This document shows positions 3,070 through 47,327 of a stretch of DNA of 64,000 nt, in pieces (the first letter of the stretch is position 1; each line of letters begins with the position of its first letter). The DNA comes from Escherichia coli (lineage in GTDB: Bacteria > Pseudomonadota > Gammaproteobacteria > Enterobacterales > Enterobacteriaceae). Location of the stretch: NCBI RefSeq assembly GCF_024502345.1, contig NZ_JALDNN010000001.1. One strand, written 5' to 3'. The notes under the pieces were generated by a model. The model ran no database searches and had not been told where the DNA came from. It worked only from the letters and a program-made list of their open reading frames with translations. Made by a program: the position numbers and the translations under genes.

Positions 3070-3293
3070 ACCTGAAAGTGAGTCCTTCTGGTGTTGTGAA
3101 TGGTCCCGCGCTGGTCGTTTTCAGCGGCAAGAAAGTGCTTATTTATGACCGCTCACTCTAGACAATATTTATTAATAATCCAATTGTTGAACTGAGAGAA
3201 TATGCATAAATCGGCATTTTTTTTATGTCGATGGGATGAGCCTGATTCGTTTGTAAAATCAGGCAAATTTTTGCAAAGGCGGATGGTCAGAAT

Positions 3294-7521: not shown

Positions 7522-7795
7522 TGACCAAAAACCTCTTTGCGTCACATTTTTACAACAATTATTGCAGAGAAAATTAATGCTATTGGAATGAAGAGAGTAA
7601 CGAATGGCTAAACTGGCTAACCCGAATGACGAAAAATTCTGGAAAACAGCACGCAATTTCGTGAAGTGATTATTTTCGTCCCTAAGGAAACCTCATAGGA
7701 TGCCTGCGGGTGCCTGAGACTTTCTGTTTTCAGGCTAACCGGGAATCAGAAAGACGAAGGCCCCGACCGATATTTCTATCAACCGAGGCCAACGA

Positions 7796-8003
<208 letters not shown>

Positions 8004-8418: not shown

Positions 8419-8483
8419 CTTCCGATGTAGACCCGTATTCTTCGCCTGTACCACGGGTCGGTTTTAGTACAGGCGTTTTCTTT
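8419..8483 (+). ncRNA. rydC: RydC small RNA (Hfq-dependent pseudoknot sRNA)
   Basis: DNA CTTCCGATGTAGACCCGTATTCTTCGCCTGTACCACGGGTCGGTTTTAGTACAGGCGTTTTCTTT matches the remembered RydC sequence and ends in a T-run, next to cybB. Confidence 0.7.
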
Positions 8484-38779: not shown

Positions 38780-38808
38780 ATGCTCTGGATAAGGATTATC
38801 CAATTCTA

Positions 38809-38917
38809 AAAAAAAGCCCGGACGACTGTTCGGGCTTGTCTTTTTATATGTTGGAAAATCAGTGGCAATGCAATGGCCCAACAGAAAATAAAATCTGTGA
38901 CAATAAAGGCATATAAC
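38809..38917 (-). ncRNA. micC: MicC small RNA (porin-regulating, Hfq-dependent)
   Basis: The minus strand reads GTTATATGCCTTTATTGTCACAGATTTTATTTTCTGTTGGGCCATTGCATTGCCACTGATTTTCCAACATATAAAAAGACAAGCCCGAACAGTCGTCCGGGCTTTTTTTT, matching remembered MicC; divergent from ompN and sharing a bidirectional hairpin with the ydbK 3' end. Confidence 0.8.
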
Positions 38918-39144
38918 CCGCGCAGAATAACGTATAGAAAATTAAAAGTATAATTTTTATTTTGTATGTATTATCTTCGATACATTCACCAGACTTATTA
39001 TCATTTCAGAAGAATTATTTGATTAAGGTTTTACTTAAGGCGTAACAAATGATATTTATCGGCTAACTGAACTTCTCCTTTAGGATGTTTTCACTCCCCG
39101 GAATGGGGATAAAAGGCAAATAAAATAACTAAAGGATTTATTCA

Positions 39145-40337: not shown

Positions 40338-40853
<516 letters not shown>

Positions 40854-40860
40854 CACTAAC

Positions 40861-40885
40861 GCCCGCACATTGCTGCGGGCTTTTT
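40861..40885 (+). terminator. Rho-independent terminator after uspF
   Basis: GCCCGCA-cattgct-GCGGGC followed by TTTTT. Confidence 0.6.
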
Positions 40886-41028
40886 GATTCATTTCGCAAA
40901 TGTGCTGACATTTTCCCCTCTAATCCGTACCATACACGCCACTGTTTTTATATCAGATTTCTTATGCTGGGCATTCCGGCATGACGCATACTCTTCTGAT
41001 GCCATATAACGAATTGAGTCGCTTTTAA

Positions 41029-41964
41029 ATGTCGCAAAATCAAGAAATTAGTAAGAAAGAACAATACAACCTGAACAAATTACAAAAACGTCTGCGTCGT
41101 AACGTGGGCGAAGCCATTGCTGACTTCAATATGATTGAAGAAGGCGATCGCATCATGGTTTGCCTCTCCGGGGGTAAAGACAGCTATACCATGCTGGAGA
41201 TTCTGCGCAATTTGCAGCAAAGCGCGCCAATCAATTTTTCGCTGGTGGCTGTTAACCTCGATCAAAAGCAACCGGGCTTCCCGGAACACGTTCTGCCCGA
41301 GTATCTTGAAAAGCTGGGCGTTGAGTACAAGATTGTCGAAGAGAACACTTACGGTATCGTGAAAGAGAAGATTCCAGAGGGCAAAACCACTTGCTCACTG
41401 TGTTCTCGCCTTCGTCGCGGTATCCTTTATCGTACCGCAACGGAACTGGGGGCGACGAAGATCGCGCTGGGTCACCATCGTGACGATATCCTGCAGACGT
41501 TGTTCTTAAATATGTTCTACGGCGGCAAGATGAAAGGTATGCCTCCGAAACTGATGAGCGATGATGGCAAACATATCGTTATTCGTCCGCTGGCCTACTG
41601 CCGCGAGAAAGATATTCAGCGATTTGCCGATGCAAAAGCGTTCCCGATTATTCCGTGCAACCTGTGCGGTTCACAGCCTAACCTGCAACGTCAGGTGATT
41701 GCTGACATGTTGCGTGACTGGGATAAACGTTATCCAGGGCGTATCGAGACGATGTTCAGCGCGATGCAGAATGTGGTGCCGTCGCATCTGTGCGATACTA
41801 ACCTGTTCGATTTCAAAGGCATCACCCACGGTTCTGAAGTGGTTAACGGGGGTGATTTGGCGTTTGATCGCGAAGAGATCCCACTACAACCGGCGGGCTG
41901 GCAGCCAGAAGAAGATGAAAATCAGTTGGATGAGTTACGGCTGAATGTGGTTGAAGTGAAATAA
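41029..41964 (+). CDS. ttcA: tRNA 2-thiocytidine(32) synthetase
   Basis: 311 aa; SGGKDS PP-loop motif and CxxC motifs. Confidence 0.9.
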
Positions 41965-42011
41965 CCAAGATGGCGCCCGATGCGCAAGCGTATCGGGCTA
42001 CTCTTATGGAG

Positions 42012-42045
42012 GCCGGATAAGACGCGGCCAGCGTCGCATCCGGCA
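42012..42045. repeat. REP (repetitive extragenic palindrome) unit between ttcA and dbpA
   Basis: GCCGGATAAGACGCGGCCAGCGTCGCATCCGGCA. Confidence 0.5.
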
Positions 42046-42092
42046 ATCCCGAATAAGATGTTTACTCTTGCACCCGGCAATTCAACATTTCA

Positions 42093-43466
42093 TTATTTTA
42101 ATAACCGCACCCGGCACGTTTTTCCTTTAATCTTCCCGCCCTGTAACTGTTTCCATGCTTTATGAGCAACAGCCTGACGGACCGCGACATAGACATGCGC
42201 CGGATGCACGGCGATTTTGCCAATATCTGCGCCATCAAGCCCGATATCTCCTGTCAGTGCACCTAATACATCACCCGGGCGCATTTTGGCTTTTTTCCCG
42301 CCATCAATACACAACGTTGCCATTTCTGCTTCCAGCGGCACAATGGAACTATTAGCTGGCGGCGTTTGCCAGTTAAGTTTTATCTGCAACATGTCAGAAA
42401 TGATATTGGCCCGCTGTGCTTCTTCCGGAGCACAGAAACTGATCGCCAGACCGCTATTTCCTGCACGAGCTGTACGGCCGATGCGATGTACATGAACTTC
42501 AGGGTCCCACGCCAGCTCAAAGTTCACCACCAGCTCAAGCGATTTAATATCCAGACCACGCGCAGCAACATCAGTCGCAACCAGTACACGGGCGCTACCG
42601 TTAGCAAAACGTACCAGGGTCTGATCGCGATCGCGTTGCTCCAAATCGCCGTGTAATGACAATGCACTTTGCCCTACTTCATTCAGCGCGTCGCAGACAG
42701 CCTGGCAATCTTTTTTGGTATTGCAAAACACCACGCAAGAGGATGGCTGATGCAAGCTTAATAACCGTTGCAACAGAGGAATTTTGCCTTTGCTGGATGT
42801 CTCATAAAATTGTTGTTCAATGGGTGGCAAAGCATCTGTTGAGTCAATTTCAATCGCCAAAGGATCGCGTTGCACTCGTCCGCTGATTACGGCGATGGCT
42901 TCCGGCCAGGTTGCCGAAAACAGAAGCGTCTGTCGAGATGCAGGCGCAAAACGGATGACATCATCAATGGCATCGCTAAATCCCATATCCAGCATGCGGT
43001 CGGCCTCATCCATCACCAAAGTATTCAGCGCATCCAGTGATACCGTGCCTTTTTGCAAGTGATCCAGCAAACGACCCGGCGTTGCAACGATAATATGCGG
43101 CGCATGTTGCAACGAATCACGCTGCATACCGAACGGTTGACCACCGCACAACGTCAAAATTTTGGTATTTGGGAGAAAACGCGCCAGCCGACGCAATTCA
43201 CCTGCCACCTGATCCGCCAGTTCACGCGTAGGACACAGCACTAAAGCCTGGGTTTGAAATAGCGACGCATCAATTTGCTGTAACAAGCCGAGGCCAAAAG
43301 CCGCCGTTTTGCCGCTGCCGGTTTTCGCCTGCACGCGAACATCTTTTCCGGCAAGGATCGCCGGAAGCGCGGCGACCTGCACCGGCGTCATGGTTAAATA
43401 ACCCAACTCATTAAGGTTCGTGAGTTGGGCGGGAGGCAAAACATGCAGGGTAGAAAAAGCGGTCAC
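42093..43466 (-). CDS. dbpA: ATP-dependent RNA helicase DbpA (DEAD box, 23S rRNA-dependent)
   Basis: 457 aa; Q motif, AKTGSGKT Walker A and DEAD motif. Confidence 0.9.
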   Translation of the reverse strand: MTAFSTLHVLPPAQLTNLNELGYLTMTPVQVAALPAILAGKDVRVQAKTGSGKTAAFGLGLLQQIDASLFQTQALVLCPTRELADQVAGELRRLARFLPNTKILTLCGGQPFGMQRDSLQHAPHIIVATPGRLLDHLQKGTVSLDALNTLVMDEADRMLDMGFSDAIDDVIRFAPASRQTLLFSATWPEAIAVISGRVQRDPLAIEIDSTDALPPIEQQFYETSSKGKIPLLQRLLSLHQPSSCVVFCNTKKDCQAVCDALNEVGQSALSLHGDLEQRDRDQTLVRFANGSARVLVATDVAARGLDIKSLELVVNFELAWDPEVHVHRIGRTARAGNSGLAISFCAPEEAQRANIISDMLQIKLNWQTPPANSSIVPLEAEMATLCIDGGKKAKMRPGDVLGALTGDIGLDGADIGKIAVHPAHVYVAVRQAVAHKAWKQLQGGKIKGKTCRVRLLK

Positions 43467-43726: not shown

Positions 43727-43848
43727 AAAAAAAAGCCGACTCATCAAAGTCGGCGTCGTACGAATCAATTGTGCTATGCAGTAATTCAAAAAAGGAAGTA
43801 AGACAATATGGAGCGCAACGCCCATCGCTTGACGTTGCATTCACCTGC
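43727..43848 (-). ncRNA. fnrS: FnrS small RNA (FNR-activated, Hfq-dependent)
   Basis: The minus strand reads GCAGGTGAATGCAACGTCAAGCGATGGGCGTTGCGCTCCATATTGTCTTACTTCCTTTTTTGAATTACTGCATAGCACAATTGATTCGTACGACGCCGACTTTGATGAGTCGGCTTTTTTTT, matching remembered FnrS, with a terminal hairpin and T-run. Confidence 0.8.
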
Positions 43849-46998: not shown

Positions 46999-47283
46999 GT
47001 TACATCCTCCCGCAATTAAGAGCGCGATATGATAACCAGACCGGGTCGGTCCAACAACGTATTACCCAAAATTCCAGTAATAAGTTCCAAATATTGCCGA
47101 TATTTTAAGCAAAATGCTTATGCATGATTATTCATTCACGATATTAATAATGTAACTTATATTTTCGTGAAATCTGTCACTGAAGAAAATTGGCAACTAA
47201 AGGTTAAAACCGTTATAACACAGTCACCGGCGCAGAGGAGACAATGCCGGACTTAAGACGCGGATGCACTGCTGTGTGTACTG

Positions 47284-47319
47284 TAGAGTCTGGCGGATGT
47301 CGACAGACTCTATTTTTTT
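47284..47319 (+). terminator. Strong plus-strand hairpin with T7 run and no plus-strand CDS upstream; possible sRNA 3' end (IsrA-like position)
   Basis: TAGAGTCTG-gcggatgtcga-CAGACTCTA followed by TTTTTTT; lies in the smrA-abgR intergenic region, where both flanking genes are on the minus strand. Confidence 0.35.
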
Positions 47320-47327
47320 ATGCAGTT

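Follow-up and report, generated by a model that had tools for sequence, protein, structure and literature searches.

The DNA analysed here, a stretch of 64,000 nucleotides of an Escherichia coli chromosome to which we refer as the window, contains the gene of the tRNA 2-thiocytidine(32) synthetase, ttcA, and, in convergent orientation, dbpA, coding for an ATP-dependent RNA helicase (Table 1). The encoded TtcA protein is 99% identical to E. coli TtcA. Between the ttcA stop codon (TAA, 41962-41964) and the end of dbpA lies a gap of 128 nt (41965-42092), in which we found two strong hairpins. These two palindromic sequences, hereafter unit A on the ttcA side and unit B on the dbpA side, occupy most of the gap. 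REPs are the most abundant repeat family in E. coli, and the family has been known since the 1980s; they are extragenic and usually located in 3' UTRs, between tandem or convergent genes. The element described here has the same extragenic position, in the gap between two convergent genes. The initial annotation had proposed REP-like palindromic units after ttcA at 41966-42060, a range that starts one base past the end of ttcA and comprises both units plus their flanks. The strings quoted there were found at this place, and the 106-nt plus-strand RNA folds at -49.6 kcal/mol compared to -30.4 ± 3.3 kcal/mol for shuffled sequences (z = -5.8), with none of 200 shuffles as good.

In order to describe the distribution of the locus, a 451-nt query around the element was compared to 5426 complete E. 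coli genomes, 5402 of which gave a match with at least 95% identity; the RefSeq features under this match are ttcA and dbpA. At least 80% of the query is covered at this identity in 5388 of the 5426 genomes, and the REP locus between ttcA and dbpA is thus fixed in E. coli. Strain CY34 (NZ_CM181225.1; locus L006, 2230-4310) is among the few genomes without the element: its ttcA is truncated 42 nt into the query and followed by an IS5 copy and then ynaI, and the 3' end of ttcA, the REP element and dbpA are all missing at the site.

Table 1 Features of the ttcA-dbpA locus, with positions in the window.
Feature	Position	Strand	Basis
ttcA CDS, tRNA 2-thiocytidine(32) synthetase	41029-41964	+	ORF list, RefSeq annotation under match
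Unit A, putative degenerate short palindromic unit; plus strand GCCCGATGCGCAAGCGTATCGGGC followed by TAC	41975-42001	- (GTAG-first orientation)	Repeat finder, folding, class alignment
Linker TCTTAT, tail-to-tail, from CTAC of unit A to GGAG of unit B	42002-42007	.	Linker comparison
Overlap of the ttcA (+) and dbpA (-) 3' ends	42004-42050	.	Mapped from K-12 1410927-1410973
Unit B, REP palindromic unit; GGAG followed by GCCGGATAAGACGCGGCCAGCGTCGCATCCGGCA	42008-42045	+	Pattern match, repeat finder, folding, REP115 coordinates
Putative remnant of a third unit; both arms of unit B recur here as CCGAATAAGA and GCACCCGGCAAT, spaced 36 and 34 nt	42046-42081	+	Repeat finder
dbpA CDS, ATP-dependent RNA helicase, 457 codons	42093-43466	-	ORF list, RefSeq annotation
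Short ORFs over the palindromes, 52-67 codons	41980-42165 (+), 41922-42080 (-), 41843-42046 (-)		ORF list

On its other side, ttcA of the window directly follows an ORF of the Usp family (40347-40853), and the region in between (40854-41028) is devoid of the Rac prophage. In K-12-like strains, intR lies immediately upstream of ttcA, and Citrobacter youngae carries a 106-aa phage-integrase fragment at the same place, so that a site of prophage integration seems to be shared on the 5' side of ttcA. Rfam matches above threshold were obtained in the window for Sok antitoxin RNA (7708-7859), RydC (8419-8482), MicC (38800-38920), FnrS (43731-43848) and McaS (47226-47321), and these RNAs fit a K-12-like map from approximately 1.49 to 1.405 Mb without Rac.

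Unit B consists of the tetranucleotide GGAG, the palindrome GCCGGATAAGACGCGGCCAGCGTCGCATCCGGC at 42012-42044 and a terminal A. The repeat finder delimited its arms, GCCGGATAAGACGC and GCGTCGCATCCGGC, within the same 42012-42044, as 14-nt sequences with 86% complementarity. The palindrome of 33 nt folds into an outer stem of 7 bp and an inner stem of 5 bp, separated by an AA/GC internal mismatch and capped by a loop of 5 nt, with energies of -26.5 kcal/mol on the plus and -26.1 kcal/mol on the minus strand (z = -5.26 and -4.52, respectively). The mismatch corresponds to the AA/GC bulge of REPs and reads GAT-AA-GACGC ... GCGTC-GC-ATC. Comparison with the REP consensus had been suggested as a check, lack of similarity to count against the assignment; the consensus pattern matched unit B with one mismatch, where 0.00 matches were expected. 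The tetranucleotide is GGAG in place of GTAG. Other annotated K-12 REPs, e.g. REP41, are also devoid of GTAG. As is characteristic of REPs, unit B is dispersed at high copy number, with similar sequences at 40 or more places per genome in 5425 of the 5426 E. coli genomes, which, together with the REP115 annotation of the site described below, bears out the proposal of a typical repetitive extragenic element.

For comparison with known units, 31 palindromic units with CTAC-like tails were collected from about 209 kb of K-12. They fall into three classes, 34-nt GCCGGAT, 36-37-nt GCCTGAT and 29-nt GCCTGAT units, corresponding to y, z2 and z1, respectively, as sized in PMC8266576 (y, 35 nt; z1, 29 nt; z2, 37 nt); the name z2 is used for the 37-nt unit in PMC8266576, PMC2817692 and bioRxiv 10.64898/2026.03.23.713779. 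Both units at our locus are GC-rich imperfect palindromes within the 20-50 nt of REP stem-loops, and both resemble the y/z1/z2 sequences. Unit B has the length and the interior, including the AA/GC bulge, of the long (z2) class and is identical to its 36-37-nt units at 33 of 37 positions. It differs by GGAG and by the discriminating stem pair, which is G.C as in y units and not T.A; G.C is also present at this pair in one further K-12 unit, close to rdgC. The Rfam search at the locus gave nothing above threshold. The only match of unit B was to naRNA4 (RF02564), an RNA derived from REP325 and reported with HU; with 29.1 bits it is below the threshold of 59.5 bits, and it covers only model positions 41-76, i.e. 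the long-Z half (Z2).

REP features are absent from the RefSeq record of K-12 that was used (NC_000913.3), including the site between yaaX and yaaA with the Z-linker-Y element known as RIP1. According to the coordinates in the supplement of a preprint (bioRxiv 10.64898/2026.03.23.713779), REP115 of K-12 MG1655 is located at 1410934-1410970, which is 42007-42043 in the window and covers unit B only. The transfer of coordinates from K-12 to the window was done by means of a gap-free alignment. The REP115 site is orthologous to the one in the window, with the same flanking genes in the same orientation and a sequence that is identical across both units; two bases differ in 151 nt, both of them upstream of unit A. 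It differs in that the REP115 annotation excludes unit A and in that K-12 has the Rac prophage abutting ttcA, which the window strain lacks. The consensus match, the copy number, the identity to the long class at 33 of 37 positions and the presence of REP115 at the orthologous site establish unit B as a bona fide REP palindromic unit. The element is thus already catalogued, and genome-wide compilations of REPs, of bidirectional terminators and of REPs associated with Rho include it; what we add is the unannotated, putatively degenerate unit A and the turnover of the site across genera.

Unit A starts 10 nt past the ttcA stop codon and reads GCCCGATGCGC-AA-GCGTATCGGGC (41975-41998) followed by TAC, which together with the last base of the stem gives CTAC; the corresponding GTAG is on the minus strand and overlaps the stem by this one base. 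The repeat finder reported arms of 11 nt with 91% complementarity. The palindrome of 24 nt folds into a continuous stem of 10 bp, one of them G.U, with a loop of 4 nt and without the AA/GC bulge, at -18.7 kcal/mol on the plus strand (z = -3.65) and -14.0 kcal/mol on the minus strand. It shares the outer stem of REPs, in which both sides of one pair are changed in a compensated manner from T.A to C.G. The closest class is that of the 29-nt GCCTGAT units, with agreement in 23 of 29 aligned columns: compared to this class, unit A is 2 nt shorter, has four substitutions, carries C.G at the discriminating pair, has lost the bulge and abuts GTAG one base closer. Sequences like unit A are of low copy number in the E. 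coli genomes, at a median of 3 places per genome (range 1-8), and by BLAST K-12 has three places similar to it.

A paralogue of unit A that is near-identical over 23 nt, GCCCGATGCGCAAGTTTATCGGGT, was found from the weakest row of the BLAST search against E. coli genomes. It lies between flgF and flgG, at the Z position of a REP doublet. A linker of 40 nt, which resembles that of the yaaX-yaaA doublet, connects this unit-A-like unit to a canonical GTAG-Y unit, and the two are ordered and oriented relative to each other as at our locus. In the flgF-flgG gap of K-12 (locus L025, 2587-2690), the unit at the Z position is a degenerate GCCCGAT...ATCGGG variant like unit A. The outer stem, the CTAC tail, the tail-to-tail arrangement with unit B, the relation to the 29-nt class, the flgF-flgG copy and a REP in Citrobacter at the corresponding place lead us to read unit A as a degenerate palindromic unit that is probably REP-related, but atypical. 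The GCCCGAT...ATCGGGC hairpin that the initial annotation had included as a preceding part of the element therefore belongs there by its outer stem, its CTAC and its flgF-flgG copy, but it is an atypical, low-copy member that is not annotated in K-12.

Alternatively, only unit B could be derived from a REP, and unit A could be an independent hairpin, for instance an old stem at the ttcA 3' end, that came to look like a REP by convergence. The median of only 3 places per genome would agree with such an origin, as would the missing AA/GC bulge, the four substitutions and 2-nt deficit relative to the 29-nt class, the absence of unit A from the K-12 REP annotation, and the non-REP hairpin in the ttcA-dbpA gap of Klebsiella and Enterobacter. 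A search for the exact unit A arms, GCCCGATGCG...CGYATCGGGC(N)TAC, in 100,044 species genomes points in the same direction: it gave three hits, namely the orthologous locus on an E. coli-like MAG contig (98.3% identity over 2465 nt) and two unrelated hairpins, although this pattern is too narrow to say anything about paralogues. Convergence would, however, have to account for a 7-bp outer stem that departs from the REP stem in the two bases of a single pair, for a CTAC that abuts this stem and for the tail-to-tail position with a REP. Furthermore, in the 270 kb examined, the outer-stem pattern was found in REPs only, with one exception, at an expectation of 0.04 per 64 kb, the flgF-flgG doublet has a near-identical copy of 23 nt at its Z position, and just past the ttcA stop of Citrobacter lies a canonical REP with the position and orientation of unit A. 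We thus regard an independent origin of unit A as unlikely.

As in BIMEs and REP doublets (yaaX-yaaA, flgF-flgG and the modules with linkers of 24-25 nt), the two units are inverted tail-to-tail. Their palindromes are 13 nt apart, whereas the linkers of our K-12 sample measure 24-25 nt in six Y/Z modules and 41 nt in the yaaX-yaaA doublet, and the linker has no similarity to those of the K-12 modules. BIME modules are described to bind IHF at the linker between the units, or to bind DNA gyrase strongly (PMC2817692); with 6 nt from CTAC to GGAG, the spacer at the REP115 site is too short to accommodate an IHF site, and the module there, in contrast to BIMEs, is not tandemly repeated. The designation as BIME-like is therefore loosely right, in that a pair of inverted units is present, but the spacing fits neither of the K-12 linker classes.

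The E. coli REP-associated tyrosine transposase TnpA-REP (RayT) tolerates no mutation of the GTAG and needs a bulge in the stem (PMC8266576). Neither unit of our locus offers both on one single strand: the bulge of unit B is accompanied by GGAG, and the GTAG of unit A by a continuous stem. In this reading, the two units descend from sequences spread by RayT and no longer resemble its substrates. Since unit B is devoid of GTAG, unit A is devoid of the bulge and the pair occupies the same site in nearly every genome, we infer that the units are probably immobile relics. It could be argued that two units in inverted orientation form a REP doublet (REPIN or BIME) that is still mobile, i.e. excised and copied by RayT, as rayT is encoded in E. 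coli and the locations of REPs vary between strains in general. Besides the mismatch to the needs of TnpA-REP, this is at odds with a position that 5388 of 5426 genomes share and with a linker of 13 nt instead of the 24-25 or 41 nt of canonical modules, and we consider it highly improbable.

With regard to a role of the immobile element in transcripts, REPs between convergent genes have been described to terminate transcription in both directions and to block 3' exonucleases, and REPs were reported to facilitate Rho-dependent termination (PMC2817692). A point against such a role is the report that, on a genome-wide scale, genes adjacent to REPs do not have longer mRNA half-lives (bioRxiv 10.64898/2026.03.23.713779). 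The supplement of the same preprint contains three sets of K-12 data for the REP115 site. First, bidirectional terminator no. 113 of its Supplementary Table 16, marked REP115, is an overlap at 1410927-1410973 of convergent 3' ends from the operons fnrS:dbpA and ttcA:intR, listed for both log and stationary phase. Second, a Rho-binding peak on the ttcA strand (1410799-1411007) overlaps REP115. Third, a bicyclomycin-sensitive transcript antisense to dbpA (1410132-1410912) is located at REP115. In contrast to the family, structure and conservation of the sequence, which are our own observations, these are cited data that were obtained in K-12 instead of the window strain and were taken from the supplement instead of the primary data sets. 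When mapped to the window, the overlap of the 3' ends falls exactly on unit B, and the ttcA RNAs would end near 42050 and the dbpA RNAs near 42004. 3' ends located at a hairpin do not separate termination from exonucleolytic trimming.

In principle, strong GC-rich hairpins just past two stop codons could be ordinary Rho-independent terminators of ttcA and dbpA that are unrelated to repeats, and Trabulsiella and Yokenella indeed have a classical terminator after ttcA. The stems at our locus, however, are not followed by a T-run, neither of them and on neither strand, and a terminator scan of both strands of 41800-42300 gave no site and no promoter either. In addition, the membership in the repeat family is clear, and the K-12 site overlaps the Rho-binding peak and the bicyclomycin-sensitive region, which makes this explanation barely tenable. 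The lack of a T-run, the K-12 data on 3' ends, Rho binding and bicyclomycin, and the REP literature taken together favour a bidirectional hairpin without U-tract as the best supported role. We are confident in the overall interpretation that the locus carries a fixed, probably immobile REP element, composed of the full unit B and the putatively degenerate unit A in opposite orientation, which is likely to act as a bidirectional, partly Rho-dependent 3'-end hairpin without U-tract.

The mechanism at the REP115 site might be as follows. Both strands of unit B would be transcribed into an RNA hairpin of about -26 kcal/mol without a U-tract. Transcripts of ttcA would pass hairpin A and have their ends a little beyond hairpin B; those of dbpA, coming from the opposite direction, would likewise extend a little beyond hairpin B, but not as far as hairpin A. 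The mapped 3' ends fit with the folding energies of unit A, -18.7 kcal/mol on the ttcA strand versus a less stable -14.0 kcal/mol on the other. The ends would probably arise by pausing of the polymerase and Rho-dependent release downstream of the hairpin and, as a second probable route, by trimming of the RNA back to the hairpin by 3'-to-5' exonucleases. In this way, hairpin B would limit antisense read-through into the respective neighbouring gene and protect both mRNAs.

REP325, between yjdM and yjdN, is similar to the element described here in that REP hairpins without U-tract are located in a 3' UTR; it was reported to cause partly Rho-dependent attenuation and to protect the upstream mRNA (bioRxiv 10.64898/2026.03.23.713779). 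It differs by having 12 units between tandem genes and by having been studied experimentally, compared to one full unit between convergent genes that is known from its sequence and K-12 maps. A separate transcript of K-12, AC1411, is a 408-nt RNA antisense to ttcA (1,411,136-1,411,543; supplement of PMC12306157), corresponding to about 41434-41841 on the minus strand of the window and located approximately 160 nt beyond the mapped 3' end of dbpA. Read-through from dbpA beyond the REP could account for it, or it could be an antisense transcript in its own right.

The main role of the element could also be at the level of DNA, which gyrase, DNA polymerase I or proteins of the nucleoid would bind or cleave there, the effects on RNA being incidental. 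BIME-2 and atypical BIMEs bind gyrase and REPs bind DNA polymerase I (PMC2817692), and the weak match of unit B to naRNA4 connects it to an RNA that was reported with HU. Yet one full and one degenerate unit do not make a multi-unit cluster, the linker is too short for an IHF-binding motif, and a recent study of REP325 found no measurable nucleoid compaction or REP-REP contacts. Given that direct transcript-end data exist for the REP115 site in K-12, a primary function in DNA appears very unlikely to us.

In order to compare the two units within the species, we sampled 12 E. coli haplotypes, a small and non-random set that was picked for divergence. Unit A keeps its -18.7 kcal/mol on the ttcA strand in 11 of the 12; among the changes observed, one turns the G.U pair into A-U and the others are in the loop. 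Unit B is weakened in four of the 12 by uncompensated changes or a 1-nt deletion, and its folding energy drops from -26.5 to between -17.2 and -11.8 kcal/mol, which argues against strong selection on the structure of unit B. The distance of 10 nt from the stop codon, the stability kept in 11 of 12 haplotypes and the decay of unit B in four of 12 raise the question of whether unit A, rather than unit B, might be the constrained element, as a stop-proximal hairpin that would slow terminating ribosomes and lower the output of TtcA. Such an effect on translation termination was reported for REPs less than 16 nt from a stop codon (Liang, Rudd and Deutscher 2015, as cited in PMC12306157). We find such a function of unit A doubtful. 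If it were true, analyses based on the K-12 REP annotation would miss unit A, the nearest annotated REP being 43 nt away.

The 3' flank of ttcA was further compared between genera. In Citrobacter youngae, the gap of 81 nt contains one canonical REP and a small hairpin; the REP starts 8 nt past the ttcA stop codon and is oriented like unit A. Klebsiella pneumoniae and Enterobacter roggenkampii have gaps of 42-45 nt between ttcA and dbpA with a hairpin, GCGTCTCAG...CTGAGACGC, that is not a REP. This hairpin (locus L012, 3444-3469, and locus L013, 3443-3471; -23.2 and -16.3 kcal/mol, respectively, without U-tract) is a conserved bidirectional stem-loop of different sequence. The terminator of Trabulsiella and Yokenella is of the classical U-tract type, and dbpA is not adjacent to ttcA there. 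This comparison shows that a stable stem-loop after ttcA is constant in every genus examined, while occupation of the site by REPs is lineage-specific. The retention of a strong hairpin of unrelated sequence in the corresponding gap of related genera also supports the role proposed for the element in transcripts. The ttcA 3' flank thus turns over among genera between an intrinsic terminator, a non-REP hairpin, a REP in one orientation and a pair of REP units.

Two short ORFs over the palindromes had been dismissed as spurious beforehand, and our results on the three ORFs found there agree with this. None of the three has a Pfam match, no annotated feature was found under the intergenic matches listed for RefSeq E. 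coli genomes, and all three would be frameshifted by a 1-nt deletion that strain S65EC and a metagenome contig carry within them. They also overlap the ends of ttcA or dbpA out of frame. The ORFs do exist, with 52-67 codons, but these findings leave a practically negligible probability that one of them encodes a small protein and support that they are artefacts of the palindromes. Short ORFs called across such palindromes should be ignored. Beyond such annotation hygiene, the locus matters little, although the K-12 annotation omits a putatively degenerate unit within reach of the ribosome at the ttcA stop codon.

The outer-stem pattern GCCNGAT...ATCNGGC occurs three times in the window, compared to 0.04 occurrences expected, and two of these are units A and B. 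The third, the palindrome GCCTGATTCGTTTGTAAAATCAGGC at 3240-3264, has an AT-rich interior and no CTAC tail. Downstream of unit B, repeats of its arms lend weak support to the idea that 42046-42081 may be a decayed direct copy of unit B, with an alignment score that was equalled by 34 of 2987 random segments of the window. A low-coverage metagenome contig (L021) is devoid of the 37 nt between two copies of GCACCCGGCA. The motif GCAYCCGGCA occurs three times in the 42046-42116 region, at 42036, 42070 and 42107 (spacings of 34 and 37 nt), the last copy being inside the coding end of dbpA, and TACTCTT and CCGRATAAGA are repeated as well.
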